Shown here: in pieces, positions 7,852 through 64,000 of the stretch | How positions within the stretch are numbered: position 1 is the first letter of the stretch | How the letters are laid out: every line of letters begins with the position of its first letter | NCBI GenBank assembly: GCA_963169855.1 | Contig: CAUJCN010000001.1 | Span: 175,645-239,644, forward strand | DNA length: 64,000 nucleotides | Direction of reading: 5' to 3' | Source: Patescibacteria group bacterium | GTDB taxonomy: Bacteria > Patescibacteriota > Dojkabacteria > J137 | The notes under the pieces: model-generated | Databases searched by the model: none | The model's input: only the letters and a program-made list of their open reading frames with translations | Told to the model about the DNA's origin: nothing | Made by a program: the position numbers and the translations under genes

Positions 7852-9324
7852 ATGGACGACAAGAAAATTACTCCAAGAGCCGAGGACTATTCTCAATGGT
7901 ATCTTGATATTGTAGAGAAAGCTGAACTTGCAGAAAACTCAGCGGTTAGAGGATGCATGGTAATTAAACCTTACGGTTACGCTCTTTGGGAAAACTTTCA
8001 AAAAGTATTAGATGGAAAGTTCAAAGAACTTGGTCACGTAAATGCTTACTTTCCTTTGTTAATTCCAAAATCATTTTTAACAAAAGAAGCAAAACATGTT
8101 GAAGGATTTGCTCAAGAAACAGCAGTTGTAACTCATTACAGATTAAAAACTGATCCAGTAACAAGAGAAGTTATTGTTGATCCAGAAGCAAAATTAGAAG
8201 AAGAATTAGTTATCAGACCAACATCAGAAACCATTATTTACGATACTTACTCAAACTGGATTAAATCTTACAGAGATTTACCATTACTGATTAATCAATG
8301 GGCAAATGTTTTAAGATGGGAAATGCGAACAAGACCATTCTTAAGAACAGCAGAATTTCTATGGCAAGAAGGTCACACAGTTCATGCGACTTTAGAAGAA
8401 GCTGAAGAAGAAGCAATTCAAATGCTGAAAGTTTATCAGTGGTTTGCAGAAGAATATCTTGCGATTCCAGTTATCCCTGGTCAAAAATCAGAATCTGAAA
8501 AATTTGCAGGAGCATTACGAACTTATACAATCGAAGCAATGATGCAGGATGGCAAAGCTCTTCAAGCGGGAACTTCACATAATTTAGGTGATAACTTCGC
8601 AAAAGCTTTTGATATAAAATTCTTGGACAAAGATGAAACTGAGAAATATGCTTGGCAAACAAGTTGGGGATTAAGCACAAGAATGATCGGAGCATTAATT
8701 ATGACTCACAGCGATGACAAAGGATTAGTTGTTCCACCAAAAATTGCACCAACTCAAATTGTTATAGTTCCAATTTGGAAAGATGATTCTCAAAAAGAGT
8801 TAGTATTAGCAGAGGCTAAGAAATTGAAAGAACAATTTGCAGGATTCAGCGTAAAATTAGACGATAGAGACTACAACACTCCTGGAGAGAAATTCTACCA
8901 GTGGGAAAAGAAAGGAGTGCCTTTGAGAGTAGAAATCGGACCAAAAGATATCGAGAAAAATCAGGTCGTATTTGTAAGAAGAGACAGCGGAGAAAAATCT
9001 TTTATCCCAATGAGTGAAGTTTCATCTCAAGCTAAATCCACACTAGATAATATCCAATCTTCACTTTACGAAAAAGCAAAGGCGTTTAGAGATTCTAGAG
9101 TTTACGAAGTAAATTCATACGAAGAATTGAAAGATGTTGTAGAAAATAAAAATGGATTTGCTTTAGCATACTGGGATGATTCTGCAGAAAACGAAGCGAA
9201 GATTAAAGAAGAAACTAAAGCCACAATCAGATGTATTCCTTTTGAGCAGAATGGAGTTTCTGGAAAATCAATTATTTCTGGAAATGAAACTAATCATAGA
9301 GTAATTTTTGCAAAAGCTTATTAA
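7852..9324 (+). CDS. proS: prolyl-tRNA synthetase, archaeal/eukaryotic-type class II
   Basis: [26 protein letters not shown]...[15 protein letters not shown]-terminus, motif 2 [15 protein letters not shown]-terminal zinc-binding-type domain; ORF track start 7768 is an upstream in-frame ATG inside the terminator hairpin. Confidence 0.9.
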
Positions 9325-23771: not shown

Positions 23772-24027
23772 ATATCTAGTATTTTAACAGAAAAAGTTGC
23801 GACTGTAAGCGTAGCCACTCTAAGTTACATCTAAAGAAAAGATTTAAAGGCTTGAAGATCAAAGGTTCTAAAACGAAAAGATGAGAAGAATTTAAGGTTC
23901 AAAGATTAAAACCTAAAACCTGAAAGCTGAAAACACAGGATCTACATCCTAAACCTTCTCCTTCACCTTTTCCTCTTCCTTTTATCATTTGATCTTTACC
24001 TTTAACTCCTTTATATTGTTATTAGGT

Positions 24028-26529: not shown

Positions 26530-29500
26530 CTAAACATCTCTTCCTAGAACTGCTTTTCCGTATTCAACCCGGTCTTCAGATTCTCTTAATCTCTTTCCGC
26601 CTCTGTTTAATTTTGATCGAGCATAGATCAATCTTAAAGTTCTGGATTTATCATCAAAGACTGCAGGATCGAATCTTTCTGTTCTAATTTCTTGAATTAC
26701 CTTATTTCGCTCTTTAGCAATCGATCCAGAAGAAAGCGAGTTCAATTGTGAGAGGTAGAATTTCTGACGAGTTTTATAGTCATTAAATAGTTGTGCAATT
26801 TTTCTTCGCAACTCTACAGTATCAGATGTTGAGTTAGCTAAGTCCGTACCTTTTTCTTTTCTAGTTAAGAATGAATTCACCTGAGAAATTCTGACTTTTA
26901 CAGATGTTGTTGCATTAGCATAGTCATTTAAATTTCCTAAGAATAAGTGGATGAAATGAGCGAACACACTTGGGTCAAAAGCAAACGTCATTCCCTGCCA
27001 TCCAAAAACTTTCATCTTTGTATTAATCACTTTATTGTAAAACTTTTGTCCAACTGATCTTATTTGCGACAAAATTGTTCTTTGATATTCAGGAGATAAG
27101 GAAGAAATACCTAGTAATGCAATGACTTCTTGTGCATTCGTAGTTGCTGGATTCTGCAGATCTGCAAACAACGATTTATCTAGGAATGCATCTTGGATAT
27201 TTTGAGAATTCATCATGATATAAAGTATATCTTGTAGTCTTTGAGCATCTACTGGAGATTGAAGGAACATATTTCCTATATCTTGTGCCTGATTTATTAA
27301 TTCTCGTGGATTGTATAAACCTGAATCTGTCATGATGTCTTGGTCCAAAAAGTTTTCGATAGATTTCTCATTTACTTGCTCATCCATTACTTGAAGCATC
27401 TTTATTTTGTTTGCTTTATAAAGATTAAGAGCTCTTGGATCATCAATTATTTCTTCTGGAATTCCAAGCATACTCTCTGGTGGCAAACTTCCATTTGCTT
27501 TTACATATCTACTTCTGATTTTTCGATCGGAAATTCCTTCATCTTTCTGCAAAGCTCTACCAACTGCGTGATCGTATTGACCCTTGAAGTTCGAATTATT
27601 AATAAGCATTTGTGCTGTTGCAACAACCTTTCCTAAAGATTTTGCAGTCTCTACAACTTTATCTGAATCTATTGTGTACATTGCAAGTGTCGATAGTTCA
27701 GCTGCATCTGCAGAATCGTCGTTACCTTCCGCGTTCTTAGTAAATGTTTGTTTCTCTAAAAGTAATGTATCAATCATTGATTGGTTTATTCCTGCACGTT
27801 TAGCAGCACCGTAAAGTCTATCTAGGTAAGAAATAATTCCTCTTGTATTTGGCGAGTAGTCCAGATCAAGAAAATTGTTTAAACCATTGATTGGATTGAG
27901 TTTAGATGAAAGTGTTTGTCTTTCAACGCTTCCTTCTAATCCTTTTAACTTCTTTTTATCCTGACCTTTATACATCTTCAAAGTTGAAGCTAATCCTGCT
28001 TTATCTTGGCCTCCAAAAAAGAAGAAACCTCCTTGCACAAGATCCTCCATTAATCCTTTATCTACATTGTGTAATTGTTGGAAAAGAGTTCCTAGATTCG
28101 CAAACTTCGGTTGCAGAGAACCAGTATTTACATCCACTACTTGTTGATGAGCTTTATTTAATGGTTCGAAATATTTTAGTGATTCATTAATTTCACCACC
28201 TGATGCAAACGGAGGAAGACCCATATAGCTATAAACCTCTATATCCACTCTTTCAATTCCAGCAGAAGTCCGCATCTCTGTAAACAATTTCGTTAAACTT
28301 TCGCCATCTTTGTTTAAAGACTCTTTTAAAGATGTAAACTCTTCTTCAGTTAATGTCCCTAAAGTTTTTCCAAGCATAGTTTCAATTTCGTCTGCGAGGA
28401 ACGGATTTGTTGCTTTTGCCTTTGCAAAAGAAGTAGAGGAATCGATTAGAAGAATAATGTTTGGTTTTAAATCTTCCGCAGGTTGGGAAACGAATTGTAA
28501 AAAGAATTTTTTCTGAATTCGTTCTAATGCACCAGTTGGGTAAGAGATAATATCAACAACCTTCTGCAAATCTCCCTCAAAAAGATTAATTAGATTTGTA
28601 ACTGGAGAATCACCAGTAAGCGAACCTCTTACATCTGCTTCAATAGCTCTTGCAATATCGCTCACAGGCATGCCATTACCTTTTCGTTCAGCAATATATT
28701 TAACTTCTTGCGCAAGTGTTTTTACAGATACAGCACTTCCTGGGAACAATCGTTTCAACTCAATTGCTTTGTGCATACTAATTCTTTCAGTTGTTTCTCT
28801 ATCTTTTTTAGCAAGCTGGACTTCTGTATTTATTGTATCTACCATTGATTGAGCTTTTTGGTATGCAGAATCAAAATCACCCACAATATCAAAATCTGTC
28901 ATTTTACCTCTTGCCAGAACTGCTGCAATGTTCGGAGGAAATATAGCATTCAAGTTTAATGGAGCGTTAGGATTAGTCATTTTTTCTTGTAATCCTGTAG
29001 CAATGATATTTTCAAGGTTAGAATTTACCAACTTCTGATCTGCTTCATTCAAGTTAGCTTTTGCTCTGGCTGAGAGTACTTCTGCTTTTATTTCTAGATA
29101 TGATCGAAATTCAGGGGAATTCGGACCAAATGAAGTAGGGTTCTTTGTGTAATCTAAAGCACTTTGTAATTGAGGATACTTTTCTGGAGGAACAGAAACT
29201 TCTCCACCAGTTAAAGCAAACTCTGTTGCCTTATTTAGCAGATCTGCATTCATATCAATAGAATCGAATAACTCTCGATTTTCTCGGATGAACTTTACAG
29301 GGTCTTTTCTTAACTTTGCGGCTTCTTTCTTTTCTTTGCCAAGTGCTTTTTCATTTCTAACTTTCTGAGTTAGGATGTACCATAAAGCCCCTGTGTATTT
29401 TGCTAAGTTCTCTGGTAATTGCCATGTCAGCTTGTATAGAGAATGGAATTTATCGATGTAACTTAATACTTTTGGTTCTCCAAAACCTCTTGCCCAATCA

Positions 29501-29739
29501 TCAAAAGCTCTCACTAACTTTACAGGTCCACCTAGTGTTTCAATCTCTTTATACTTTTCCTTATCAAAAGCCTTATCGATCCATTTGCTAATATCGCCCA
29601 TGCCATCAACAAGTGCGTCTCTACCGTCTCCAACACTTCTCCAAAATCCTAATTTTTTAACAGTTCGATTACCGTTATTTAAACGGTTTTCAAATCTGCT
29701 ATCTGCTAAATCTCTAGTTACATCAGGCGCGGCTTTCAT
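26530..29739 (-). CDS. large (1069 aa) soluble hypothetical protein, translationally coupled to P-type ATPase
   Basis: 17-bp overlap with upstream ATPase gene; no TM, no Walker A. Confidence 0.5.
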   Translation of the reverse strand: MKAAPDVTRDLADSRFENRLNNGNRTVKKLGFWRSVGDGRDALVDGMGDISKWIDKAFDKEKYKEIETLGGPVKLVRAFDDWARGFGEPKVLSYIDKFHSLYKLTWQLPENLAKYTGALWYILTQKVRNEKALGKEKKEAAKLRKDPVKFIRENRELFDSIDMNADLLNKATEFALTGGEVSVPPEKYPQLQSALDYTKNPTSFGPNSPEFRSYLEIKAEVLSARAKANLNEADQKLVNSNLENIIATGLQEKMTNPNAPLNLNAIFPPNIAAVLARGKMTDFDIVGDFDSAYQKAQSMVDTINTEVQLAKKDRETTERISMHKAIELKRLFPGSAVSVKTLAQEVKYIAERKGNGMPVSDIARAIEADVRGSLTGDSPVTNLINLFEGDLQKVVDIISYPTGALERIQKKFFLQFVSQPAEDLKPNIILLIDSSTSFAKAKATNPFLADEIETMLGKTLGTLTEEEFTSLKESLNKDGESLTKLFTEMRTSAGIERVDIEVYSYMGLPPFASGGEINESLKYFEPLNKAHQQVVDVNTGSLQPKFANLGTLFQQLHNVDKGLMEDLVQGGFFFFGGQDKAGLASTLKMYKGQDKKKLKGLEGSVERQTLSSKLNPINGLNNFLDLDYSPNTRGIISYLDRLYGAAKRAGINQSMIDTLLLEKQTFTKNAEGNDDSADAAELSTLAMYTIDSDKVVETAKSLGKVVATAQMLINNSNFKGQYDHAVGRALQKDEGISDRKIRSRYVKANGSLPPESMLGIPEEIIDDPRALNLYKANKIKMLQVMDEQVNEKSIENFLDQDIMTDSGLYNPRELINQAQDIGNMFLQSPVDAQRLQDILYIMMNSQNIQDAFLDKSLFADLQNPATTNAQEVIALLGISSLSPEYQRTILSQIRSVGQKFYNKVINTKMKVFGWQGMTFAFDPSVFAHFIHLFLGNLNDYANATTSVKVRISQVNSFLTRKEKGTDLANSTSDTVELRRKIAQLFNDYKTRQKFYLSQLNSLSSGSIAKERNKVIQEIRTERFDPAVFDDKSRTLRLIYARSKLNRGGKRLRESEDRVEYGKAVLGRDV

Positions 29740-33711: not shown

Positions 33712-35067
33712 TTACACTTCGAAGTTTTTTCCTCTAGCACCTTTTGTTAACTCAACTGGAAGATACCTTTCGAAACCTGGATCTTGTTTGTAAAGTGTTA
33801 GTAGTTTCTGCGCTGATGCAGGATCTCCAGTTCTTAGATACTTTACTTTTAGAGAGAAAAAGTAAGTATTCATCGCTTTCTTAATTTTTGGCAAATCGAT
33901 TTCCTTTTTTGACTTTCCAAGAACGTGGATTCTTTTTTCTAGCATTAGTAAATGCCAGTCTAGTTCTTCATCTGTATATTTTTCTAAATCATCTCCAATA
34001 TAGCTAGATAAGTCATCTCCAAAAACCAAAGTCAGCATTTCTATATCTGATGTTGTCAATTTAGAAATCAGTTTAACCATTTCTGATCCAAAGTATTTAT
34101 TCTTGAATGTTCTAGAATTCACTATAGCTGATTTTATTAACTCCGCTACTAATTCTTTTTCTTCAGCTGTTAAGTGTAGAGAGAATTCTGCATATGCACC
34201 AATAAAAACATCCCAATTTCCAGAAACTTCCATAACTACTCTTAGGAAGCTGTCGAATTTTTCTGTAATTCTTGAACGAATAAGTGGTTTGCTAAGATAT
34301 TCATTTATGAAACCTTTAAATAAATTTTGAATATACTCAGGTTCTACATCTTCAAGAGTTTTGCCTCGAAGAAATCCTTCTGCAAATTCTCGATCTAGAT
34401 ATGCTCCTGTTTCGATCAATAGATCTGCAATTTCTCGTTTCATGTAAGGTATTTTAATACCTCCCCTTTCTAAAATCTTAATTGCATAGTAACGGTGATC
34501 CTCAGGACTCAAATTGGGAATAATATACTCAATCAAGAAAGCCTGATAATATTGAGCGGCAGAATATTGCAAGTTGCCACTATATGCTTCTCTGTATTTA
34601 TCAACTCCTATCTTCAAGATGATATTTTTGATCCCCTCTAGAATATGTGGATCTGGAATGAAACCCTTTTTGCCCGCATCACTAAATTTTGGTTTTATAG
34701 AGATTTCTAAGTTTTCTTCGTCAGGAACAACTACTTCTGTATCGATATGTTCAGGATTCTCAGGACTATTTCTTAGCAGATCTTCAAAAGATGTAATATG
34801 TGGAACAAGAACTTTATTTCCTTTCAGAATTTCGTTCATTTGATCTGGATTTATGTGTGGTGCTGGTACTCCGCCAGAACTTCGGAGTTGTGATTCAGCA
34901 TCATCTATAAGTGGATCTTCCATATACTTATTATAGCAGGCAATCGCCCATATCACAATACTGGTAGTAATTATAGGAGTTTCAAATCTCTGCGAATAGA
35001 AATTTCTGATAACCAGCGAATAATTCCTCAAAGAGTTTCCAAGTATCCTCATCGGGTCTTTTTGCAT
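33712..35067 (-). CDS. hypothetical protein (true start possibly at internal Met, nt 34923)
   Basis: 451-aa ORF; the first 48 codons overlap the upstream gene. Confidence 0.4.
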   Translation of the reverse strand: MQKDPMRILGNSLRNYSLVIRNFYSQRFETPIITTSIVIWAIACYNKYMEDPLIDDAESQLRSSGGVPAPHINPDQMNEILKGNKVLVPHITSFEDLLRNSPENPEHIDTEVVVPDEENLEISIKPKFSDAGKKGFIPDPHILEGIKNIILKIGVDKYREAYSGNLQYSAAQYYQAFLIEYIIPNLSPEDHRYYAIKILERGGIKIPYMKREIADLLIETGAYLDREFAEGFLRGKTLEDVEPEYIQNLFKGFINEYLSKPLIRSRITEKFDSFLRVVMEVSGNWDVFIGAYAEFSLHLTAEEKELVAELIKSAIVNSRTFKNKYFGSEMVKLISKLTTSDIEMLTLVFGDDLSSYIGDDLEKYTDEELDWHLLMLEKRIHVLGKSKKEIDLPKIKKAMNTYFFSLKVKYLRTGDPASAQKLLTLYKQDPGFERYLPVELTKGARGKNFEV

Positions 35068-36641: not shown

Positions 36642-37775
36642 GTGAATGGTGATGTAACAAAAATTGATAGTAGGGATATTCCAGATTTTGACTTTCTCCT
36701 TGCAGGATTTCCTTGTCAACCATTCAGTGCTGCAGGTAATAGAAAGGGATTTTTAGATACTAGAGGTACACTATTTTTCGAGATTGAAAGAATATTAAAA
36801 GAAAAAAAACCTCAAGGATTTCTTTTAGAAAACGTTGAAGGACTAGTCAACCATGATAAAATCGATCCTAAAGCAAAGATGGGTAGAACCCTTGAAACAA
36901 TTCTCACTAAACTCGATTTACTTGAATACAAAACCTCTTGGAAAGTTTTAGATTCTTCAGAATTTGGAGTTCCTCAAAAAAGAAAAAGAATATATATAGT
37001 AGGTCATAAGAAAACTGCCATTGATTTAGAAAACTTTCCTAAGACGAAATCAAAATTAGATGAAATTTTAGAAAAGGGACTCGATGTTCTAAATACACCG
37101 TTCACAAACAAATTGTTAAGCAAGTTTAATGTCAAGGAACTTTACGGTAAATCTATAAAAGATAAACGCGGCGGGAATGAAAATATTCATAGTTGGGAAT
37201 TAGAACTTAAAGGGTCGGTTAGTAAGTTTCAATCCGAGCTACTTAATATTTTGCTGAAAGAAAGAAGAAAAAAAATTTGGGCTGTCAAAAAAGGAATTCA
37301 TTGGATGGATGGAATGTCTTTAACATTAGCCGAGATTCAAAGTTTCTTACAACCCAATCTCTTTCAAGAAGATAATCTGAAATCTGAATTAGATGATCTT
37401 GTTACTAAAGGATATCTGGTTTTCGAACACCCTAAAGATCTCAACTCATCTGGAATAAGAGATTACAGATATGACTTAGAACCAGGTTATAACATTGTTT
37501 CTGGGAAATTAAGTTTTGAAATCAGCAAGATTCTAGATCCAAATGGAATTTCGCCTACTTTAGTTGCTACTGATATCGAAAAAATTGCCATCCCTGATAT
37601 TAACGGGGTAAGAAGGTTAACTACTAGAGAAGGATTGCGATTATTTGGGTTTCCTGAAGATTTTCGAATAGATGTAAAAAAACGAGAAGCTTATGATCTT
37701 CTAGGAAACACTGTGGTAGTAACTGTGGTGCAGAAGGTTGCAGAAAGGATACTACAAAGTATTGCCAGTATGTGA
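36642..37775 (+). CDS. DNA (cytosine-5)-methyltransferase; homology continues in frame upstream to about 36444 without an ATG/GTG/TTG
   Basis: PCQPFS (motif IV), ENV (VI), QKRKR (VIII), GNTVVVTV (X); in-frame upstream codons encode KFIDLFAGIGG (motif I). Confidence 0.75.
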   Translation: MNGDVTKIDSRDIPDFDFLLAGFPCQPFSAAGNRKGFLDTRGTLFFEIERILKEKKPQGFLLENVEGLVNHDKIDPKAKMGRTLETILTKLDLLEYKTSWKVLDSSEFGVPQKRKRIYIVGHKKTAIDLENFPKTKSKLDEILEKGLDVLNTPFTNKLLSKFNVKELYGKSIKDKRGGNENIHSWELELKGSVSKFQSELLNILLKERRKKIWAVKKGIHWMDGMSLTLAEIQSFLQPNLFQEDNLKSELDDLVTKGYLVFEHPKDLNSSGIRDYRYDLEPGYNIVSGKLSFEISKILDPNGISPTLVATDIEKIAIPDINGVRRLTTREGLRLFGFPEDFRIDVKKREAYDLLGNTVVVTVVQKVAERILQSIASM

Positions 37776-38435
37776 CAAGTAATTTTCTTTTACTTTTACT
37801 AACCAATCACTGCTTGCTAATGAAGTCTTGGGGTATTTCATCAGTACTGAATAAAGAGCTTCAACAAAAGACTTCCGAGAGTCGAAAATCTTAAACTTGC
37901 TTTTACCTGATGGATTTCTAAATATACTTGCAGGTCTTATATTATAAATGACGTCTCTTTTTATTTGAAATCTAATTGCGTATCTTTCTCCAGGACAAGT
38001 TATTTCCCATATTTTTTTTAAAAAAATATTATTAACTTTAAAGATCCCCTCTCTCAAAGTGTATGAGAATATAAGGTAATCAGCATCTAGTCTGTATGAA
38101 TCTGAAAGCAAGGAGTCACAGTAGGATTCAAAGTTCGCAATATCAAAGTTTGCGTCGCCGTCGTAATCGAAAACCTTTATTTCGAGAAGATCTTTGGTAG
38201 TGCTCAACGGAGACATGTAAAAGTCTGGAAATTCTTGAGTATTCTCAGGAGATGCTGCTTCAATACCACTTTGATTCATCCATGCCAGTAACCAATTTTG
38301 AAAAATGTACCCAACTGCACTTTTGTCAGTTAAAGTATTAGATACACCTAAAAAATCAAATCGAGATTGTCCAGAATTCTCAAGAATCCCACTTTCTTTT
38401 AGTCTTTTTACAAGTTCTTGCGCTGTAATAACCAT
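37752..38435 (-). CDS. putative type II restriction endonuclease (convergent partner of the MTase)
   Basis: 24-bp convergent overlap with MTase; candidate PD-(D/E)xK element D...LLEIKVFD. Confidence 0.4.
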   Translation of the reverse strand: MVITAQELVKRLKESGILENSGQSRFDFLGVSNTLTDKSAVGYIFQNWLLAWMNQSGIEAASPENTQEFPDFYMSPLSTTKDLLEIKVFDYDGDANFDIANFESYCDSLLSDSYRLDADYLIFSYTLREGIFKVNNIFLKKIWEITCPGERYAIRFQIKRDVIYNIRPASIFRNPSGKSKFKIFDSRKSFVEALYSVLMKYPKTSLASSDWLVKVKENYLSHTGNTL

Positions 38436-39359: not shown

Positions 39360-41222
39360 TTACTCCCCCTTCCTCAACTCATACATCCTCACAATCTCCT
39401 CAACACTATTAGGGTAATCCTTATCTCGATTCCAAATCTTTAATCTTGGAAATCGAATAGACAACCCTTTTGTTGAATCATCGTTTTTTACTTTTGCAGG
39501 AATTCCTTTCGCTGCTGTGTGGTTTGGGCTTCTTGTAATTTCGTCTGCAACAATTTCCATAACTAATTTTGGTTTTACCCAAACGTCTGGAACTAAAGTT
39601 TTATCTACAACATAGTTTTCTGGTTTCTCGGCCACGAAATGTTTCTGTAAGTCTGCATTAATTGTTGGAGCTTGTTCATCTGTAAATCCGCTTCCAACTT
39701 TTCCAATAGAGTAGTAGGTATCGTTACTTGCATCGTAGACCCCTGCCAACATCGCACCAAATCCGTATTTATTTCTCGCACCTTGTCCGTAGAAATATCC
39801 CAACACAACAACGTCGATTGTATCTACCAAGTGACTTTGAGTATTAGCCTTCAGCTTAATCCATTTGAAATTTCTTGTTCCAGGTTCGTATGTAGATTTT
39901 TCTTCTTTAGTAATTATTCCTTCTAAACCTGCATTCACTTTGCTGAAGAAATATTCTTCCAACTCAGCTTCTGATTGCATTTGTTTTGTCTCCAGCATCT
40001 TTAATGAGCCCTGAGCTTTGAGCTTTGAGCTTTGAGCTTCCTCCTTAGAGTTCTGAGAAAGCAAAGACTCCAGTATTCTCAGCCGTTCCTCTATCGGTTC
40101 CTGAGTTATATCTTTTCCATTCAAATACAAAACATCAAAACACATTGCTCGGACAGGAATATCTTTTGCATAAGTTTCCACATCGTACTTTCTTCTTCGC
40201 TGCATTGTTTCCTGATAAGTTTTGTAATTACCATCTTCTTCTACACCAATAATTTCTGAATCCAAAACAACAGAATCAACACCAAGATTTTTTACAGATT
40301 CCAAAAGCTCTGGGAAGTTGTCTGTAAGTCTTTCCATATTTCGACTGTAGACTTCGGCCTCACCAGTTTTTTTATCAAAATGAATTTGACCACGTAGTCC
40401 ATCCAACTTTGGCTGAACAAAACACTTCGGCATTCTTTCCCAAACAGAAGCTGCAGAATCTTCTCGCTCCACAAGCTTAGATGCGATTGGAACTCCAGGA
40501 ACAATTTTAATTTTTGATAGATTTTCAATTGCTGAAGATTTATCAGTGAGAATAATTTCCGCAAGTTGACCAGCATCTGCTCTTGCTCCAAAAGCCTGAT
40601 CAATTAATTTTCTTGTAGATTTATCTCCAGACACAACAAAAGAAAGAGAGTCGAGTAGAGTTTTGTCGCTAGCACCAAGCCTTAAGTCTCCTAAAATAAT
40701 TCTAGTTGTGAATTTAATTTCCTGAGGTTCAAGAATTCTGAAAAGGTTTTCGTACAATTTTAATTTTGCATCTTGAGATCCTTTCCCAGAAGTTTGAGTT
40801 ATTTTAATTAAGAATGAGTGTAGTTCTTCGATAGTTTCGACTTTGATGTCTGTCACATCGAGCTTGTCGAGATGTGTTTCACCATTTTGGTTATCATGCT
40901 TCGACAGGCTCAGCATGACATCTCCTTTGAATGTTTCTCGAATTTCTGCTGCAACATTCCCCATATCCCCAAGTTTACCCAACATCGACTTAACATCTTC
41001 AGAAGTAAATTCCTGAAGTTTTCTGATAATCATTTTGTCTGAGAAGTTGAATTCAATCGGCTCGAATTTTGGTGCAACTCTACCTTGAAGAAAGTAGATA
41101 AAAAATCGAGCTTCTTTTGGTGAAAGCTGGGTTAGAAAATCCGCGGTTAAAGTGGTTAGATCGTTTCTAGAACTTGTGGTTTCGAGTTTGTTTAAAAAAG
41201 CTGAGAGTTCTGTTAGTTTCAT
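39360..41222 (-). CDS. ATP-dependent DNA ligase
   Basis: adenylation motif I KLDGLRGQIH, EGIITK, WIKLK motifs. Confidence 0.8.
   Translation of the reverse strand: MKLTELSAFLNKLETTSSRNDLTTLTADFLTQLSPKEARFFIYFLQGRVAPKFEPIEFNFSDKMIIRKLQEFTSEDVKSMLGKLGDMGNVAAEIRETFKGDVMLSLSKHDNQNGETHLDKLDVTDIKVETIEELHSFLIKITQTSGKGSQDAKLKLYENLFRILEPQEIKFTTRIILGDLRLGASDKTLLDSLSFVVSGDKSTRKLIDQAFGARADAGQLAEIILTDKSSAIENLSKIKIVPGVPIASKLVEREDSAASVWERMPKCFVQPKLDGLRGQIHFDKKTGEAEVYSRNMERLTDNFPELLESVKNLGVDSVVLDSEIIGVEEDGNYKTYQETMQRRRKYDVETYAKDIPVRAMCFDVLYLNGKDITQEPIEERLRILESLLSQNSKEEAQSSKLKAQGSLKMLETKQMQSEAELEEYFFSKVNAGLEGIITKEEKSTYEPGTRNFKWIKLKANTQSHLVDTIDVVVLGYFYGQGARNKYGFGAMLAGVYDASNDTYYSIGKVGSGFTDEQAPTINADLQKHFVAEKPENYVVDKTLVPDVWVKPKLVMEIVADEITRSPNHTAAKGIPAKVKNDDSTKGLSIRFPRLKIWNRDKDYPNSVEEIVRMYELRKGE
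40006..40040. repeat. heptanucleotide tandem repeat (GAGCTTT)n inside ligase CDS
   Basis: gagccct gagcttt gagcttt gagcttt gagcttc; encodes EAQSSKLKAQGSL on coding strand. Confidence 0.7.
40895..40920. repeat. hairpin-family copy embedded in ligase CDS
   Basis: CATGCTTCGACAGGCTCAGCATGACA; the 12-mer TCGACAGGCTCA is also at 47943 and, reverse-complemented, at 7569. Confidence 0.6.
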
Positions 41223-43585: not shown

Positions 43586-45082
43586 ATGCCTGACTATTAC
43601 GAACAACCAGCTTATCTAAAAGAACTGTTAGAAGAGCCAAAAACAGAAACTACAGTTGTAAATACGAACGTTCCGCCTTCAGATGATGACGACACGCCAA
43701 AAAGATCTTTACCTAAGATTCCTCAAAGATACATTATTATTGTAATCGCATTACTTATTATTCTTGTTTTACTAGTAGTACTTTTAGGAACAAGAAGAAC
43801 TGGTGGAACAACTCCAACAACAACAGGTACTGATCCTAATAAAACAGTGATCTTGCAATGGTGGGGAGTTTACTTATCAGAAGATGCCGTAGGACCTTTG
43901 CTAGATGAATACAATTCCATAAATCCAAACGTAACTATTCAGTATGCAGATCAATGGCCAATCGGCTCTTATGATGACGCAGTTGCAAATTATAGAAGTG
44001 AACTAAATAGAAGAATCGCCTCTACAGATGTAGTTGAAACACCAGACATATTCATGGTGAATAACACTTGGGTCAAAGATTATATTAATTACGCTCAAGC
44101 TGCGACAAGTAATGTAACCGATTACGCAACATTCGCAAATACATATTATCCAGTCGTAGCTTCAGATTTTGCTAGTTCTACAACTCAGAAGGTTTTCGGA
44201 GTACCCTTATGGCTTGATACATACGCGATTTTATACAACAAAGATCAATTGAACGCAGCTTCAGTTTCAACAATTCCAACTGACTGGACTACATTTAGAA
44301 ATTTAGCCAGAACACTAACTCAGAAAACAGGATCAACTTTAACAAGAGGAGGATTTGCAGCAGGAATAGCCTCGAATGTAACTTACGCAACAGCGATGTT
44401 CAATCTATTGATGATTCAGAATGGAGTAGAGATAACAGACGCAAATGGTTTACCAATTTTCGGATCACAAACAGAATCTAAAAGTGCGTTAGATTTCTAC
44501 AAAGATTTTGCTACAAGTGCGAACTATACTTGGAGATCTTCAGCAAAAAATGATGCAGTAGCATTCTTGGAAGGAGACTTATCCATGATTTTTGCACCAA
44601 GCTACAGATACAGAGATTTAAAAACTACAAACGAAGATTTATCTTTAGGGTTAGATATTGGAGTAGCTCAGGTTCCACAGTTAGTTGGACAAAGCCAGCC
44701 ACTAATCAACTGGGCGGACTATTGGGGAAACATGGTTTCTTCGAAAAGACCGAATGCTGCTTACGCGTGGGATTTCTTAAACTGGATTACTCAACCAGAA
44801 CAACTTAGAAAACTAAACGATAATATAAAAACTGATACAGCTCAATTCGGAATTCTATACCCAAGAAAAGATATGGCTGCGGATAATCTTGCAGATACTG
44901 ATTTAAAGATTTTTGCAGAATCGTTACCTTTTGCTCAAAGTTGGCAGATGGTTAAGGGAATAGAAGTAAATGCGGCTTTTGAAGAATTGTTGGATTTGAA
45001 TTCTCCAAGTGCGAATAATATTACTCAGACTCAGAATGATATTACTCCGCTGGTAAATTCTGCTGGAACGCTAACGCAGTAA
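43586..45082 (+). CDS. extracellular solute-binding protein (ABC-transporter SBP family 1-like), membrane-anchored
   Basis: N-terminal TM anchor; VILQWWG...PNVTIQYADQWP...TPDIFMVNNTWVKDY pattern typical of sugar-binding SBPs. Confidence 0.5.
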   Translation: MPDYYEQPAYLKELLEEPKTETTVVNTNVPPSDDDDTPKRSLPKIPQRYIIIVIALLIILVLLVVLLGTRRTGGTTPTTTGTDPNKTVILQWWGVYLSEDAVGPLLDEYNSINPNVTIQYADQWPIGSYDDAVANYRSELNRRIASTDVVETPDIFMVNNTWVKDYINYAQAATSNVTDYATFANTYYPVVASDFASSTTQKVFGVPLWLDTYAILYNKDQLNAASVSTIPTDWTTFRNLARTLTQKTGSTLTRGGFAAGIASNVTYATAMFNLLMIQNGVEITDANGLPIFGSQTESKSALDFYKDFATSANYTWRSSAKNDAVAFLEGDLSMIFAPSYRYRDLKTTNEDLSLGLDIGVAQVPQLVGQSQPLINWADYWGNMVSSKRPNAAYAWDFLNWITQPEQLRKLNDNIKTDTAQFGILYPRKDMAADNLADTDLKIFAESLPFAQSWQMVKGIEVNAAFEELLDLNSPSANNITQTQNDITPLVNSAGTLTQ

Positions 45083-47993: not shown

Positions 47994-49922
47994 ATGAAAA
48001 CGTCAGAGCAAATCAGAGAAGAATTTTTGAAATTTTGGGAAGAATCACCTAGAAACGCCAAGCTTGTTCCGAACATGTCATTAGTGCCAAATAACGATCC
48101 TACTTTACTTTTCGTAAATTCAGGAATGTTCCCACTTGTTCCTTATTTAGGAGGACAACCACACCCTTTGGGAACGAGACTTTATAATTTGCAAAGATGC
48201 GTAAGAACAATCGATATTGATGATGTAGGGGACAATCGACATTTAACTTGTTTCGAAATGATGGGCAATTGGTCACTTGGGGATTTTACAAAAGCTGAAC
48301 AAATTCCTTGGATTTTGGAACTTCATGTAGAAAGATACGGATTCGATCCATCCAGACTATACATCTCGGTTTGGGGAGGAGACGATTCTATTCCAAGAGA
48401 CGACGAAGCAATCGAACTTTGGAAAAAGGCATTCAGGAAATACGGCATCGAAGCTGAATACTCAGAAGACAGATCAAACTTACCAAAAGATTTAGAAGAA
48501 GGAAAAACTTGGAAGCCAAGAATCTTTCCATTCGGAAAGAAAGAAAATTGGTGGCAAAGAGGACCTGATGTTGTTGGAGAACTTGGAGGACCTTGTTCAG
48601 AAATTTTCTTTGATACAGGAAAAATTGTTCACGAGCAGGAAAAGTACGACATTAACGATGACTCATGGAGATTCATCGAAATCGGAAACAACGTTTTCAT
48701 GGAGTACAGATTTGATGAAAGCGGAAAGTGGGTTCAGATGGAAAAGAAGAACATCGACTTTGGGGGAGGATTTGAAAGAGTAGTTAAGTGTATTCAAGAT
48801 CAAGAAGACTTCTTTGGAACAGACATTTTCATGCCTTACATTCAAAAAGTTGAAGAGCTTTCTGGAATGAATTACAAAGACGGAAATGGAAAAGATCACG
48901 ATAAATCAAACTCATTTAGAGTTATTGCGGACCACATTAGAACAAGCGTTTTAATGATTGGAGACGGAGTTGTTCCTTCAAACAAAGACCAGGGATATAT
49001 TCTAAGAAGACTTATAAGAAGAATGATCCGACACGCTATGAAAGTTGGAATTCAAGATAATTTTGCAGAAGATTTGGCAAAAGTTGTAATCGAAAAAATG
49101 ACTCACGGTTACCCTCATTTACAAGAACAGAAAGCTCGAATTATTTCTGAATTAGTTAGAGAAGAAGAAAAGTTCTCAAAGACAATAAGCAATGGTTTGA
49201 GAGAATTAAACAAACTTGTAGACGAAGTAAATAATTCTCAGAGAACTTCCCTGCCTGCCGGCAGGCATGGGATTTCGGGAGGAGACGCTTTCAACTTGTA
49301 CGAAACTTACGGTTTTCCAGTAGAACTTACATTAGAACTTTTGAAAGAAATGGGAATTTCTGAATTTTCTATGGATGAATTCAACGCTGAACAGGAAAAA
49401 CACCAATCCGATTCTAGAGCTGGAGCAGAGCAGAAGTTTAAAGGAGGTTTAGCTGATCAGTCAGAAGAAACTACAAAACTTCATACAGCTCATCACTTGT
49501 TACTTGCAGCTTTACAGAAACTTGTTAATCCTACTATCAAGCAGAGGGGAAGTAATATTACTGCTGAAAGATTAAGAATTGACTTCAATTTGGATAGAAA
49601 ACTAACTGAAGAAGAAATCAAGAATGTAGAAGAATGGGTTAACGCAAGAATTGCAGAAAAGTTACCTGTTGTAAGATTAGAAATGAAAAAAGAAGAAGCT
49701 GAAAATATTGGTGCACAAATGGAATTCGGAGCTAAATATCCAGATGTCGTATCAATTTATTACATTGGGAATTCAGTGGAAGAATCTGTTTCTAAAGAAT
49801 TCTGCGGAGGTCCACACGTTTCCAATACTTCTGAACTTGGTGAAGGCGGAAAAACTTTCAAGATTGTAAAAGAAGAAAGTAGTGGAAGCGGAATCAGAAG
49901 AATAAAAGCTTCTTTAGTTTAA
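47994..49922 (+). CDS. alaS: alanyl-tRNA synthetase, short form lacking C-Ala domain
   Basis: N-terminal catalytic-domain motifs (LVPNNDPTLLFVNSGM, RHLTCFEMMGNWSLGDF), editing HxxxH (HTAHHLLLAAL) and CGGPHV; 642 aa. Confidence 0.85.
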   Translation: MKTSEQIREEFLKFWEESPRNAKLVPNMSLVPNNDPTLLFVNSGMFPLVPYLGGQPHPLGTRLYNLQRCVRTIDIDDVGDNRHLTCFEMMGNWSLGDFTKAEQIPWILELHVERYGFDPSRLYISVWGGDDSIPRDDEAIELWKKAFRKYGIEAEYSEDRSNLPKDLEEGKTWKPRIFPFGKKENWWQRGPDVVGELGGPCSEIFFDTGKIVHEQEKYDINDDSWRFIEIGNNVFMEYRFDESGKWVQMEKKNIDFGGGFERVVKCIQDQEDFFGTDIFMPYIQKVEELSGMNYKDGNGKDHDKSNSFRVIADHIRTSVLMIGDGVVPSNKDQGYILRRLIRRMIRHAMKVGIQDNFAEDLAKVVIEKMTHGYPHLQEQKARIISELVREEEKFSKTISNGLRELNKLVDEVNNSQRTSLPAGRHGISGGDAFNLYETYGFPVELTLELLKEMGISEFSMDEFNAEQEKHQSDSRAGAEQKFKGGLADQSEETTKLHTAHHLLLAALQKLVNPTIKQRGSNITAERLRIDFNLDRKLTEEEIKNVEEWVNARIAEKLPVVRLEMKKEEAENIGAQMEFGAKYPDVVSIYYIGNSVEESVSKEFCGGPHVSNTSELGEGGKTFKIVKEESSGSGIRRIKASLV

Positions 49923-50539
49923 ACTTCGAATGCAGAAGGACTTGAACCCTGGTTTGAGTCCTTTTTCTTTCCATTTTTTGTATTCTTAATTGTTCCTAAA
50001 TACTTCCTTAATTTATCGTATTCGCAAAGATCAGCCATTTCGTAGTCAGGAAAGACATGTGGTGGTACCTGAAAGTCTTTACTAGCAGAGGCCATTACCA
50101 AGTATCTAGCAATTGATTCTGCAGCGTCTCTAAAAAACATATCATTAACAACCTGCTCTCTATTGCCATATTGTCCAAGGATATTAACTATTTCAAGCCT
50201 TTTCTTTGCAATTCTCTTTTCTACCATGCTTCTTAATTCTGCGAAGAACTCTTCTTGTTCGTAACCATCCTTTAAAGAAAAATGATATCCGGCTAGTGGT
50301 TGTTCATATCTATCAAGTTGAACACTTGCCATCCAAGTTTCGTAATCGCTGTCTGGTTCTAATATTTCAGTTTCACTTGAATTATTAACTTTTCCAGACC
50401 CTCTTCTCCTTTCCTCTACAACAAAAATCATACCAACGAAAACATATTGAAATTCTGGTAAAAGTGTAGAAAACAAAGGAAATTCGCTTGTTTTATCTAT
50501 TATTTCAAATTGAATAAAGTCGTCGCCCATTTTTAGCAA
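49919..50539 (-). CDS. hypothetical protein
   Basis: 206-aa ORF. Confidence 0.4.
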   Translation of the reverse strand: MLKMGDDFIQFEIIDKTSEFPLFSTLLPEFQYVFVGMIFVVEERRRGSGKVNNSSETEILEPDSDYETWMASVQLDRYEQPLAGYHFSLKDGYEQEEFFAELRSMVEKRIAKKRLEIVNILGQYGNREQVVNDMFFRDAAESIARYLVMASASKDFQVPPHVFPDYEMADLCEYDKLRKYLGTIKNTKNGKKKDSNQGSSPSAFEV

Positions 50540-50574: not shown

Positions 50575-51810
50575 TTAGGAAAGTAGAAGCTGTGCAGATT
50601 CGTTAGAATTTTTGATCTCGTATTCCGAAGGTGTTGCTGTTGTGTAAACGACCTGGTTAGTTCTTTTTGTAAACTCGTCGAACATTAGAGGTCTATTATC
50701 TAGCGCTGATCTCATTCGAAATCCGTAATCAACAAGGTTTTCTTTTCTTGATCTATCTCCTGAATACATTCCTCCAATCTGAGGGACTGTAATATGGGAT
50801 TCGTCGATAATTGTTAGATAGTCTTCTGGAAAATAATCGAGTAAAGTAGACGGAGCTGAACCAACTGCTCGCCCATCTATGTATCTAGAATAATTCTCAA
50901 TTCCCTTGCAGAATCCAGTTTCTTCGATCATTTCCATGTCGTAGTTTACTCTTTGTTTTAATCTAGTTGCTTCTACAAGTTTACCTCTATCAGTAAAGTC
51001 TTTTACCTCTTTTTCTAAATCTTCTCGAATTCGCACAATTGCTCTTTTTAGTTTTTCTTCTGGAGTTACGTTATGCTTTGCTGGAAAGATTGTAATCTCG
51101 TCGACTCTTCCAATAACTTCTCCACTGATTGGATTCATAATTCTAATTGAATCGATGTCATCTCCAAAGAATTCAACTCTAACAGCTCTGTCTTCGGAAA
51201 CTGTAAGATTAATATCTAATGAGTCACCTCTAACTCTGTAAGTTCCTGTTCCAAAATCATTGTTAGTTCTTTCGTACTGCATATCTCTTAAACGAGAAAG
51301 TAGTTTGTCTCGTGTTAAAGCTTTTCCTGTTTCAATTTTCACGCTCATACCCTCGTAATCATCTGGATTTCCAAGACCATATATGCATGAAACAGTTGAT
51401 ACAATAATAGTATCCTTTCGTGATAAAAGCATTTGAGTTGCAGAGTTTCTGTATCTTTCGATTACCTCGTTAATATCTGAATCTTTCTCAATATATAAAT
51501 CTCTAGAAGGAACGTATGCTTCTGGTTGGTAATAGTCGTAGTAACTTACAAAGTATTCCACTGCATTTTCTGGAAAAAAGTCTATAAATTCTGAGTACAA
51601 CTGTGCCGCCAAAGTCTTATTATGGGATAAGATCAATGTTGGTTTATTTACATTCTGAATCAGGTTCGCCATAGTGAAAGTCTTACCTGTTCCCGTAGCT
51701 CCAATCAAAGTCTGATGTTTTAATCCAGCTTTTACACCTTCTGAAAGAATATCAATTGCCTGTGGTTGATCGCCAGATGGTTTGTAGTTTGAGTGAAGTT
51801 TAAATGCCAT
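50575..51810 (-). CDS. uvrB: excinuclease ABC subunit B, N-terminal fragment (domains 1a/2/1b only); truncated gene or pseudogene
   Basis: GATGTGKTF Walker A, NKTLAAQLY, VEYFVSYYDYYQPEAYVP; stops after ...TTATPSEYEIKNS, lacking helicase domain 3 (motifs IV-VI) and UvrC-binding domain. Confidence 0.75.
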   Translation of the reverse strand: MAFKLHSNYKPSGDQPQAIDILSEGVKAGLKHQTLIGATGTGKTFTMANLIQNVNKPTLILSHNKTLAAQLYSEFIDFFPENAVEYFVSYYDYYQPEAYVPSRDLYIEKDSDINEVIERYRNSATQMLLSRKDTIIVSTVSCIYGLGNPDDYEGMSVKIETGKALTRDKLLSRLRDMQYERTNNDFGTGTYRVRGDSLDINLTVSEDRAVRVEFFGDDIDSIRIMNPISGEVIGRVDEITIFPAKHNVTPEEKLKRAIVRIREDLEKEVKDFTDRGKLVEATRLKQRVNYDMEMIEETGFCKGIENYSRYIDGRAVGSAPSTLLDYFPEDYLTIIDESHITVPQIGGMYSGDRSRKENLVDYGFRMRSALDNRPLMFDEFTKRTNQVVYTTATPSEYEIKNSNESAQLLLS

Positions 51811-61887: not shown

Positions 61888-62056
61888 AGGCATCCTAAAG
61901 GATGGAAGATTCAAGACCAAAGATAAGAAGATTAAAAAGAAAAAATTTACCAAGAAGATTCAAAATAAGATTAGGATTCTTCAATAGTTCTTTGTGCTTT
62001 GATCTTTTAATTTTTGATCTTGAAAAAATAATTTGAAAAATTATTATTTTCTAAGT

Positions 62057-62129
62057 GGGTAGCTAGCTCAACTGGTAGAGCATTTCTTTGACGTAGAAAA
62101 GGTTACAGGTTCGAGCCCTGTGTTACCCA
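62057..62129 (+). tRNA. tRNA-Val (GAC)
   Basis: acceptor GGGUAGC/GUUACCC, anticodon stem UUUCU/AGAAA, loop UUGACGU, T-loop UUCGAGC. Confidence 0.8.
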
Positions 62130-62179
62130 TTAAAGTAAAATATTAAGATCCAAGATTCGAAGATTCAAAAATAATAAAG

Positions 62180-62212: not shown

Positions 62213-62256
62213 TTATTTTAATCTTTTAGTCTTTTAAACTTTAAACTTTTTTGAAT

Positions 62257-63765
62257 ATGACTCCAATTACTGACGAAGCAAAACACTCAGCTGCTCACAT
62301 TTTAGCGCAAGCTGTACAAAGAGTTTACCCAAAAGTTAAGATCGGAATAGGACCAGTCACAAAAGATGGATTTTATTACGACTTTGATCTCGGAGATAAA
62401 AAGATTACTCCAGAAACAATCGATTTACCAGAAATTGAACAGGAGATTAAAAAGATAATTTTAGAAAATCTTCCATTCAAACAAGTAGTCATGCCAAAAG
62501 AAACTGCATTAAACTACATGCTTCAGATGGGTCAGATTTATAAATCAGAATTGATTAACGTAGTTCCCGACGATAGCATAAGCTTCTTTAAAACTGGAGA
62601 TGAATTTATAGATGTTTGCCGAGGACCTCATATCGCTTACACGGGAGATATTGGACCAATCATTCTTACCAAGGTTATTTCTACATTCTGGAACGAAGAC
62701 CCTAAAAGACCTCCAATGATCAGAATTTATGGGAAGACTTTTTACAACGAAGACGAGGTTTCTGACTACAGATCTAAAGAAGAGCAGAAGAGTAAAAAAA
62801 GTTATTTAAACACACTAAAGAACTTCGGAATGGCTTCGAAAGAAGGGAATATCAATATTCTTGGACTAAAGTACATTGAAAAAGTTTCTGATGATTTGAG
62901 CAAAAAGCTTGGAATCTACTCTAATCTAAGAACCGACATTTTCGGGATTCACGAAAATACCCAAAGTGTTCTTGCAGATCTCGAATCAAAAGCATTCACT
63001 ATTCAAAGAGCAAAGGAAAAATCACATTTGAAAACAGCAGGAAAGACTTTGATTAAAAACTTACCACTAAAAGATTCTTTAGAAGATCAAATTACTTATT
63101 TCCATGTAACTTATTGCAAGGAGCAAGATTTATTCTTAAACATTGGATTTATCGAAAACTTCTTAGACCAAGTCAATTTCGAAAATAATAATGTTACGGC
63201 AGAAATCGAATTCAACGACGCCGAAAATAGCGTTTTCCGAGCAATCTCTGGAATTTTGCAGAATAAATATATTTCTCACGACAGAGTTATTACGGAATCT
63301 AAAGAAATTTTAGTTAGAATCAACGTTCTTGATGAACTGGACAGGGAATGGAAACTTGCAGAAGTAAGGATTAGATTCAACGGGGATAAATCTATAATGC
63401 TGTTCACATTACCCTTATTAAACTATATTGCATTCCAAGTCGAAAGCAATCCAAGCTTCCCTAAATCTTATTATGATGTTTATCTAATTCCTACAGACAA
63501 GAAATTCGAATCATATTCATTTGAATTAGCAGACGAACTTTCTCAAAAAGGCTTTGTAACAAAGGTTTTGAAGAATACTAGCAGCTTAAAGAAGAGAATT
63601 CGAAAATCATACATCGATAGCGTTAAGTACACTTTATTGCTTGGAGCAAAGGAAGTTTCTAACAGCTCAATTTCTTTGAGAAGTATCGAAGAAGACATCG
63701 GATTAGTTAAGAATGAAGAGTTAATTTCATATCTAGAAAAATTAGACGAGCAGATCGGCAACTAA
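62257..63765 (+). CDS. ThrRS-like protein: N2 editing domain + catalytic-fold domain lacking class II motifs + anticodon-binding domain
   Basis: HSAAHILAQA and DVCRGPH (ThrRS editing site), C-terminal HGTP_anticodon-like region, middle region homologous to ThrRS core (DELDREWKLAEVRIRF vs DCLDRAWQCGTVQLDF) but without motif 2/3 Arg or Zn ligands; ORF track TTG start 62251. Confidence 0.65.
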   Translation: MTPITDEAKHSAAHILAQAVQRVYPKVKIGIGPVTKDGFYYDFDLGDKKITPETIDLPEIEQEIKKIILENLPFKQVVMPKETALNYMLQMGQIYKSELINVVPDDSISFFKTGDEFIDVCRGPHIAYTGDIGPIILTKVISTFWNEDPKRPPMIRIYGKTFYNEDEVSDYRSKEEQKSKKSYLNTLKNFGMASKEGNINILGLKYIEKVSDDLSKKLGIYSNLRTDIFGIHENTQSVLADLESKAFTIQRAKEKSHLKTAGKTLIKNLPLKDSLEDQITYFHVTYCKEQDLFLNIGFIENFLDQVNFENNNVTAEIEFNDAENSVFRAISGILQNKYISHDRVITESKEILVRINVLDELDREWKLAEVRIRFNGDKSIMLFTLPLLNYIAFQVESNPSFPKSYYDVYLIPTDKKFESYSFELADELSQKGFVTKVLKNTSSLKKRIRKSYIDSVKYTLLLGAKEVSNSSISLRSIEEDIGLVKNEELISYLEKLDEQIGN

Positions 63766-64000
63766 TGGAAAATACGAAAGTATTAGCTGACAAATCGAGC
63801 AAGCCACCTCTAAATGCAGAGGTAATGTTCAACACTGTTTTTAAGATTTCGAATCCCCCAACACAAAGCATGGTAAGTGAAACTGGATTTGTTGCTATGT
63901 TTACAGAAACAGAAACATTAGGCTTTCTGAAACCGTATCTTAAAAATGGTGCTACAGAAAACGACATCAGAGGAAAAAGACTCAAAGTTTCTTTCCTAGA
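63766..64000 (+). CDS. hypothetical protein, 3'-partial (runs off window)
   Basis: ATG overlapping the preceding stop (TAATGG), open to window end. Confidence 0.3.

Follow-up and report, generated by a model that had tools for sequence, protein, structure and literature searches.

What does a threonyl-tRNA synthetase (ThrRS) gene do once its catalytic core has been stripped? The question is raised by a gene in a 64,000-nucleotide stretch of a Patescibacteria genome (assembly GCA_963169855.1, contig CAUJCN010000001.1), the whole of which is referred to here as the window. The gene, called the degenerate thrS in what follows, encodes a ThrRS-derived protein in which an editing domain and an anticodon-binding domain (ABD) flank a class II core that is no longer recognisable to domain searches. 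It is a positional descendant of thrS in tiny-genome, Dojkabacteria-related members of the Candidate Phyla Radiation (CPR), and it has probably been kept, dead for aminoacylation, as a proofreading protein specific for tRNA(Thr). An earlier note on this DNA had proposed that such a protein could be a trans-editing Ser-tRNA(Thr) deacylase. Judged from the invariant N2 editing site, the intact ABD and the stripped core, this is still the best-supported function and the most likely one.

Editing and anticodon-binding domains

The gene and its parts are laid out as follows.

62257..63765, plus strand: degenerate thrS, 502 amino acids, stop codon TAA at 63763-63765 (open-reading-frame list and sequence)
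62257..62751, plus strand: ThrRS N2 (tRNA_SAD / ThrRS-Ed) editing domain, residues 1-165 (PDB phmmer, Pfam PF07973, predicted local distance difference test score, pLDDT, of the model ~90)
62284..62298, plus strand: HxxxH editing motif H10-S-A-A-H14, equivalent of E. coli His73/His77
62587-62589, plus strand: Phe111, a bulky aromatic residue, equivalent of Tyr173
62611..62631, plus strand: D119-V-C121-R-G-P-H125, the CxGxH editing motif, which contains the catalytic Cys; equivalent of E. coli D180/C182/H186
62752..62841, plus strand: helical linker between N2 and core, residues 166-195, with model helices H165-180 and H183-189 and 18% conservation
62842..63456, plus strand: class II catalytic core relic, residues 196-400, folded in the model, without zinc site, motif 2 or motif 3
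63457..63762, plus strand: class IIa (HGTP) anticodon-binding domain, residues 401-502 (Pfam PF03129, match to the S. aureus ThrRS ABD)

Two start codons are possible, a TTG at 62251 (in frame, two codons upstream) and the likelier ATG at 62257, giving a product of 502-504 residues. The product is 100% identical to the homologue P0001, whose start is the ATG.

Pfam recognises the two ends of the protein: tRNA_SAD (PF07973) at residues 114-160 (E 1e-8, 35.4 bits, cut-off 24) and HGTP_anticodon (PF03129) at residues 409-497 (E 3.5e-10, 40.3 bits, cut-off 21). The catalytic domain tRNA-synt_2b is absent from the Pfam results even at E<=1. The NCBIfam thrS model TIGR00418 gives 143.9 bits, below its cut-off of 383.65, and aligns only through model positions 1-186 and the ABD. 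In phmmer searches of the PDB, residues 9-184 find the N2 domains of ThrRS from S. aureus (2.8e-29) and E. coli, residues 392-492 find the ThrRS ABD, and the stretch between N2 and ABD has no match. The best ABD matches are ThrRS proteins, both in NCBIfam and among PDB sequences, and the C-terminal class II ABD described in the earlier note is confirmed by its Pfam score. The peptides which that note cited are all present in the protein: HSAAH at residues 10-14, DVCRGPH at 119-125, HVTYCKEQ at 283-290 and DELDREWKLAEVRIRF at 359-374.

The editing site is intact, as had been claimed. Residues H10, H14, K96, D119, C121 and H125 (E. coli H73, H77, K156, D180, C182 and H186) are invariant in all aligned sequences, family members and canonical ThrRS together, in two alignments of 18 and 30 sequences. 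R122, G123 and P124 of the DVCRGPH segment are invariant in the same alignments. The roles of the HxxxH and CxGxH motifs in editing have been described (PMC3592468, PMC12003907), and the Tyr173 position tells ThrRS-type editing sites, with a bulky aromatic residue, from AlaRS-type sites, with V, I, L or T (PMC12003907). The window protein has F111 here, its family has F or Y, and canonical ThrRS has Y; by this sequence marker, the editing site is of the ThrRS type and not of the AlaX type.

The same residues bear on whether the protein hydrolyses its ligand or only binds it. A pseudo-synthetase comparable to HisZ or to the E. coli ThrRS-operator system could act as a regulator or chaperone that binds tRNA(Thr) or mRNA, with N2 holding the CCA end without hydrolysis. 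Such a protein might, for example, control the downstream infC-rpmI-rplT operon or sequester tRNA(Thr). Canonical ThrRS contacts tRNA through its ABD and N2 domains, as in the E. coli ThrRS-tRNA complex (1qf6), and retention of both in the window protein, together with its place at the head of the infC-rpmI-rplT cluster, is consistent with a regulatory role. However, all residues needed for hydrolysis, among them the catalytic Cys and the two His of HxxxH, stay invariant across deep divergence, which a binding-only role would not predict, and an Rfam search detected no T-box, thrS-leader or operator-like RNA upstream of the gene. A regulator or chaperone is therefore a rather improbable identity for this protein.

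The relic catalytic core

Profile comparison and structure prediction both identify the middle of the protein as a folded, true homologue of the ThrRS core and not as unrelated filler. HHalign, run with the middle region and ABD of the family against the core and ABD of twelve bona fide ThrRS sequences, returns a probability of 99.8% and an E-value of 1.3e-28 over 316 collinear columns. The middle of the degenerate thrS product is thus homologous to the ThrRS core, in line with the alignment offered in the earlier note. An AlphaFold2 model built from 30 family sequences is confident throughout, with a mean pLDDT of 86.9; within the middle region most blocks lie at 81-93 and three at ~66-68. 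Foldseek searches with this model retrieve full-length E. coli ThrRS (1qf6) at 7e-35 and S. aureus ThrRS at 6e-34. Isolated ThrRS core and ABD chains follow at ~1e-17, over ~390 columns with 13-14% identity, and HisRS is also retrieved.

Every catalytic residue has been lost from this core. The protein is ~90 residues shorter than canonical ThrRS by deletion, and it keeps 5 of the 37 invariant canonical core positions, all of them Gly, Glu or Pro and none a catalytic or zinc-binding residue. The active-site zinc ligands of E. coli ThrRS are Cys334, His385 and His511. In the profile-profile alignment the zinc-Cys segment KPMNCP is deleted, the column of the zinc His in DAH holds V284, and the second zinc His (that of IHR) is replaced by S379. 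The earlier note had counted one zinc ligand as kept, His283; this residue adjoins the DAH column, is not conserved in the family, not even in P0004, a relative with 69% identity, and carries no functional weight. The reported loss of the motif 2 R-x-E and of the motif 3 arginine is borne out. K267, a lysine that is not conserved across the family, stands in place of the motif 2 Arg, L269 in place of the motif 2 Glu and N389 in place of the motif 3 Arg. FYGPK has become SKEIL, and the T, Q and D of TIQLDF are E, R and R. Two stretches of the relic core are conserved within the family and specific to it, S331-x2-L-Q-x3-I-S340-H341 and D359-x-L-D-R-E-W.

It had been set beforehand that recovery of the motif 2 and motif 3 arginines and the zinc ligands by a careful alignment would speak against a degenerate core. 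The profile-profile alignment recovered none of them, and so the observation stands. The absence of a TGS domain was correctly read for this protein but is not special to it: the canonical Dojkabacteria ThrRS proteins P0040 and P0052 also lack TGS, so its absence carries no particular meaning here.

Family, decay series and selection

Homologues of the window protein fall into about 30 clusters of 495-527 residues, 28-82% identical over 97-100% of the query. Cluster annotation places PF07973 and PF03129 in all of them and PF00587 in none. A member-by-member Pfam scan gives tRNA_SAD in 30/30, HGTP_anticodon in 30/30 and tRNA-synt_2b (PF00587) in 0/30 at E<=1. At NCBI the member P0026 bears the label Candidatus Dojkabacteria; Dojkabacteria are likewise the source of the nearest canonical N2 domains. 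IMG annotates some members as 'threonyl-tRNA synthetase', and PGAP annotates one as 'tRNA ligase C-terminal domain-containing protein'. Since these labels differ, CPR genomes can be misjudged in either direction, in estimates of completeness as well as in metabolic reconstruction.

Protein lengths are graded (596 > 581 > 559 > 533 > ~515 > 502 residues). The longer intermediates have broken motifs in cores that are still ThrRS-like: P0028 (533 residues), P0066 (559), P0039 (578), P0031 (581; locus L010 10001-11746, GCA_021463645.1) and P0049 (586). These 533-586-residue forms lie at the same locus and partly keep FYGPK and the motif 3 ER, and they have lost the zinc Cys and motif 2. The series from 596 to 502 residues offers natural intermediates between a synthetase and a pseudo-synthetase. 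Along it the core signal falls stepwise: with a local hidden Markov model (HMM) of the canonical core, canonical Dojkabacteria thrS reaches 536 bits, P0031 reaches 96, the 514-residue P0008 reaches 5 and the window open reading frame (ORF) reaches 1.0.

The three domains have diverged to different extents. Mean pairwise identity among canonical ThrRS proteins is 0.56 for N2, 0.47 for the core and 0.45 for the ABD; the corresponding values within the degenerate family are 0.57, 0.21 and 0.35. Compared with distant family members, the window protein is 57% identical in N2, 19% in the core and 27% in the ABD. Between the window gene and its 82%-identical relative, the proportion of synonymous differences (pS) is at least 0.78, which is saturated, and the proportion of nonsynonymous differences (pN) is 0.055 in N2, 0.145 in the core and 0.113 in the ABD, so that the core evolves ~2.6x faster than N2. 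All parts of the degenerate thrS are under purifying selection, the editing domain most strongly, which excludes a pseudogene. The conservation pattern fits selection that acts on editing and on the binding of tRNA, the core serving as a structural scaffold.

Two alternatives are weighed by these data. The graded lengths and the stepwise fall in core signal could reflect a functionless remnant, decaying slowly as a pseudogene after displacement by another ThrRS. Against such a remnant stand intact reading frames in at least 30 clusters, N2 domains that remain 57% identical across synonymously saturated lineages, pN far below pS in all domains, and a predicted structure that is confidently folded throughout. 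The pseudogene was rejected on conservation and dN evidence, and simple decay is the least credible account of the gene.

The protein could also still be the ThrRS of the cell, and its only one, either with a radically re-invented active site or as a scaffold that binds tRNA for some unknown activity by which Thr-tRNA(Thr) is formed. The thrS slot is occupied, after all, and no other ThrRS is found in the window or, among the matches listed, on shared contigs, although a partner is easily missed among lists of the best 120. The family core, however, retains no invariant Arg, Lys or Glu; the threonine-recognising zinc site is deleted or replaced, and no member has the Arg of motif 2 or that of motif 3. 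The fast evolution of the core, with only 21% identity across the family, and the lack of conservation of the private ORF downstream argue in the same direction. A surviving synthetase is thus very unlikely.

Locus and gene neighbourhood

In the window genome, the gene order is MutL - DUF192 - ClpP - tRNA-Val - degenerate thrS - 261-aa ORF - infC - rpmI - rplT - cupin - PBP1. The order MutL-DUF192-ClpP-thrS-infC-rpmI-rplT-PBP1, with the degenerate gene at the thrS position, is common to the loci of P0002, P0004, P0008, P0026 and P0031. The canonical Dojkabacteria thrS genes of P0040 and P0052 likewise directly precede infC and rplT. The thrS-infC-rpmI-rplT slot was found in six degenerate lineages (L001, L005, L010, L096/L097, L103 and L105) and in two canonical ones (L008 and L098). 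As a control, infC is directly downstream of thrS in 42/65 unrelated bacterial genomes, the loci being those of ordinary bacterial ThrRS N2 matches from a GTDB genome scan. Because it holds the same infC-rpmI-rplT slot as canonical Dojkabacteria thrS, the degenerate thrS is a positional descendant of thrS and not an extra copy. The label 'paralog' given to it in the earlier note has to be dropped, since in every lineage inspected the gene sits in the ancestral slot.

Further along the cluster, pheS-pheT follow rplT in the canonical genome L008 (P0040) and in L010, which carries the 581-residue form. In the short-form genomes (about 500-518 residues; L005, L096/L097, L001, L103 and L105), PBP1 comes directly after rplT and pheS-pheT are not there.

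Around the gene, the window holds the following features.

62020-62047: promoter-like site ahead of tRNA-Val(GAC) (promoter scan)
62056..62130, plus strand: tRNA-Val(GAC), immediately upstream of the degenerate thrS (ARAGORN, Rfam)
63765-64000: start of the 261-aa ORF between the degenerate thrS and infC, which runs off the end of the window and is present in full at L001 5837-6622

tRNA-Val(GAC) and the degenerate thrS may be co-transcribed. The 261-aa ORF is translationally coupled to the degenerate thrS, its ATG overlapping the TAA of that gene by one base. This ORF was considered as a conserved partner or as the missing catalytic part and was rejected: it has no similarity to entries in Pfam or the PDB, and it is missing from the two closest genomes (those of the 82%- and 69%-identical relatives). 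It is private to the window genome, and its absence from these relatives indicates that it is not the partner.

Proposed mechanism and putative catalytic partner

As a proofreading enzyme, the degenerate thrS product would dock tRNA(Thr) by its anticodon, with bases G35/U36, through the ABD. The shrunken, catalytically empty class II core would serve as a rigid spacer that sets the geometry, and in most members, those with the motif-1-like SYRDFP, it might also be a dimerisation module. The N2 domain would then take the 3' end and hydrolyse Ser-tRNA(Thr) through its conserved HxxxH / CxGxH site. The Ser-tRNA(Thr), on which the protein would act in trans, would be made by a separate ThrRS, probably an editing-less one.

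Several observations weigh against this proposal. The motif-1-like segment (SYRDFP/SYKELP), a class II dimer-interface motif that is kept in most members and is the best-kept piece of the core, has been replaced in the subclade of the window protein (AKEKSH/PKEKSF), so dimerisation is uncertain there. No second thrS was found in the 64 kb window with the canonical-core HMM, which matched ProRS only, at a weak 15 bits. In the other lineages read, no ThrRS lies within 10 kb on either side of the degenerate gene. The wider partner search consisted of three homologue lists, each of the best 120 matches, driven by N2, by the canonical Dojkabacteria core and by the N2-less ThrRS of CPR bacteria. Among the matches listed, no partner ThrRS falls on the contigs of 245,155, 300,756, 743,571 and 1,149,470 bp or on other contigs bearing the degenerate gene. 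The 245,155 bp contig is that of the window, and those of 1,149,470 bp and 743,571 bp (JGI 3300043184 Ga0484864_000003) carry P0008; GCA_030949735.1 and GCA_030950485.1 are further assemblies with the degenerate gene. Conversely, the genomes inspected that carry an N2-less ThrRS show no member of the degenerate family (for example, on a 541,934 bp contig), again among the matches listed. Lists of this depth could easily miss a partner, which makes this an absence of evidence, but a separate active ThrRS is the central premise of the proposal. The canonical-core list, for instance, is filled by 120 canonical Dojkabacteria ThrRS proteins, all at least 77% identical. Linking by accession proximity revealed no ThrRS near the accessions of P0026 (MDQ6985140/MDQ7020432), a route limited by the fact that most proteins from metagenome-assembled genomes have no accession.

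Candidate short ThrRS proteins emerged from a search of representative proteins with a core and ABD query. Catalytic-only ThrRS without N2 is common in the CPR, with about 95 clusters of 393-414 residues in Patescibacteria/Berkelbacteria (P0335, P0406-P0494). Its gene lies away from infC, in the order SmpB-dut-dcd-thy-SHMT-thrS (with dUTPase, dCMP deaminase and thymidylate synthase), as in two examples.

L099 10001-11185: N2-less CPR ThrRS
L101 10001-11200: N2-less CPR ThrRS

Because such editing-less, catalytic-only enzymes are common in the CPR, the right kind of partner exists there. The lineages that carry them apparently have no cis-editing ThrRS. Two further proteins, P0178 and P0206 (~80% identical to P0040; L093 1798-3547 and L094 28-1778), were tried as N2-less ThrRS and set aside. 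They are frameshift or gene-calling artefacts, since an N2 ORF of 142-150 residues lies directly upstream and several other genes on the contig are broken.

The state of the motif 1 segment also bears on a different arrangement, in which the protein is an obligate editing subunit that forms a heterodimer with an active ThrRS through the motif 1 interface of its relic core, so that editing would effectively occur in cis. That most members preserve this segment better than any other part of the core, and that the relic core is under purifying selection, would both suit such a subunit. Duplicated ThrRS proteins of cyanobacteria are documented to oligomerise in trans (PMC4787780). Yet the window subclade keeps the gene despite its replaced motif 1, and no partner has been found. 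An obligate heterodimer is unlikely on balance, though it is the alternative to which we give the most weight.

It is less probable still that genomes bearing the degenerate thrS have no conventional ThrRS at all, with Thr-tRNA(Thr) formed by an unknown route and the protein serving as a tRNA(Thr)-binding proofreading scaffold. The occupied thrS slot is in keeping with it, as is the lack of another ThrRS core in the window and, in the three lists of the best 120 homologues, of any ThrRS from the 0.25-1.15 Mb contigs with the degenerate gene. If true, this would be the first case of a missing ThrRS, analogous to the SepRS/SepCysS or transamidation pathways for other 'missing' synthetases.

Relation to known systems

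The division of ThrRS into a charging and a proofreading enzyme has been described only in some Crenarchaeota, where it uses an archaeal editing fold (PMC3592468). There, ThrRS-ed is thought to clear the Ser-tRNA(Thr) produced by a separate, editing-less ThrRS-cat (PMC3592468). This precedent for splitting charging from editing supports the reading of the degenerate thrS as a proofreading protein. The likeness is an architectural analogy only: both are ThrRS-derived proteins that combine an editing domain, a degenerate class II core and an ABD. ThrRS-ed differs in its archaeal DTD-like N-terminal editing domain, which has no Pfam match in the degenerate thrS product, and in having a known catalytic partner in Crenarchaeota. 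The ThrRS-ed model NF011500/PRK14938 matches only residues 398-478, within the ABD, and its 18.8 bits fall far short of the cut-off, 362. Because the editing folds differ and NF011500 matches the ABD only, the degenerate thrS is of independent origin, convergent with ThrRS-ed and not a member of its family. The earlier note was right that the free-standing archaeal editing protein uses another editing fold (PMC3592468).

Canonical bacterial ThrRS (TIGR00418; TGS-less P0040 and P0052) shares the locus with the degenerate thrS, along with an N2 domain 44-46% identical to its own, a collinear homologous core and the ABD. The cores of canonical Dojkabacteria ThrRS are at least 77% identical to one another among the best 120 matches, in contrast to 21% in the degenerate family. 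Like the degenerate thrS, ThrRS-ed is reported (Korencic et al. 2004) to be a resident-type gene that degenerated.

AlaX/AlaXp resembles the degenerate thrS product in its homologous editing fold, its HxxxH / CxGxH motifs and its action in trans on Ser-mischarged tRNA (PMC12003907). Matches between the two are weak (the AlaXM model NF040865 at 32.2 bits against a cut-off of 300; PDB 1v4p and 1v7o). Unlike the degenerate thrS product, AlaX has no relic core and no ABD, targets tRNA(Ala), and carries an aliphatic residue of the AlaRS type at the Tyr173 position, which is F or Y in the degenerate family. The N2-less ThrRS of Patescibacteria/Berkelbacteria (P0335, P0443 and P0490) belongs to the same radiation and forms the complementary half, with an intact core and ABD without the editing domain.

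Retention of a class IIa core as a scaffold after loss of aminoacylation is also seen in HisZ and in POLG2, the accessory subunit of DNA polymerase gamma, with or without an anticodon-binding-like domain. Neither is known to carry a working editing domain, and their roles (regulation of ATP phosphoribosyltransferase and polymerase processivity) are unrelated to proofreading.

A literature search found no description of a bacterial counterpart of the ThrRS-cat/ThrRS-ed split. If the degenerate thrS is a proofreading protein, it would represent an independent bacterial split, built on the N2 (AlaX-like) fold and reached by decay of the resident thrS in its own operon. Such a trans-editing factor would be specific for tRNA(Thr) and would carry an anticodon reader of its own.

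Other features of the window

Four further large ORFs have no Pfam family at E<=1e-5: 23989-26526 (plus strand, 845 residues), 26530-29739 (minus, 1069 residues), 33712-35067 (minus, 451 residues) and 43586-45082 (plus, 498 residues). A restriction-modification pair consists of a C-5 cytosine DNA methylase at 36642-37775 (plus) and a convergent NgoBV-type restriction endonuclease at 37752-38435 (minus). The DNA ligase at 39360-41222 (minus, 620 residues) is ATP-dependent, with N, adenylation and C domains, and is of the archaeal/eukaryotic type and not the NAD-dependent LigA. UvrB appears to be truncated or split: the ORF at 50575-51810 (minus, 410 residues) has the N-terminal ResIII and UvrB-interaction domains only, and it is adjoined on the same strand by a 206-residue ORF at 49919-50539 (minus) with no Pfam match. 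ProRS at 7768-9324 (plus) belongs to the archaeal/eukaryotic type: it has a ProRS-C_1 domain but lacks the INS editing domain. AlaRS at 47994-49922 (plus) is short, at 642 residues, ending at its tRNA_SAD editing domain without a C-terminal extension.

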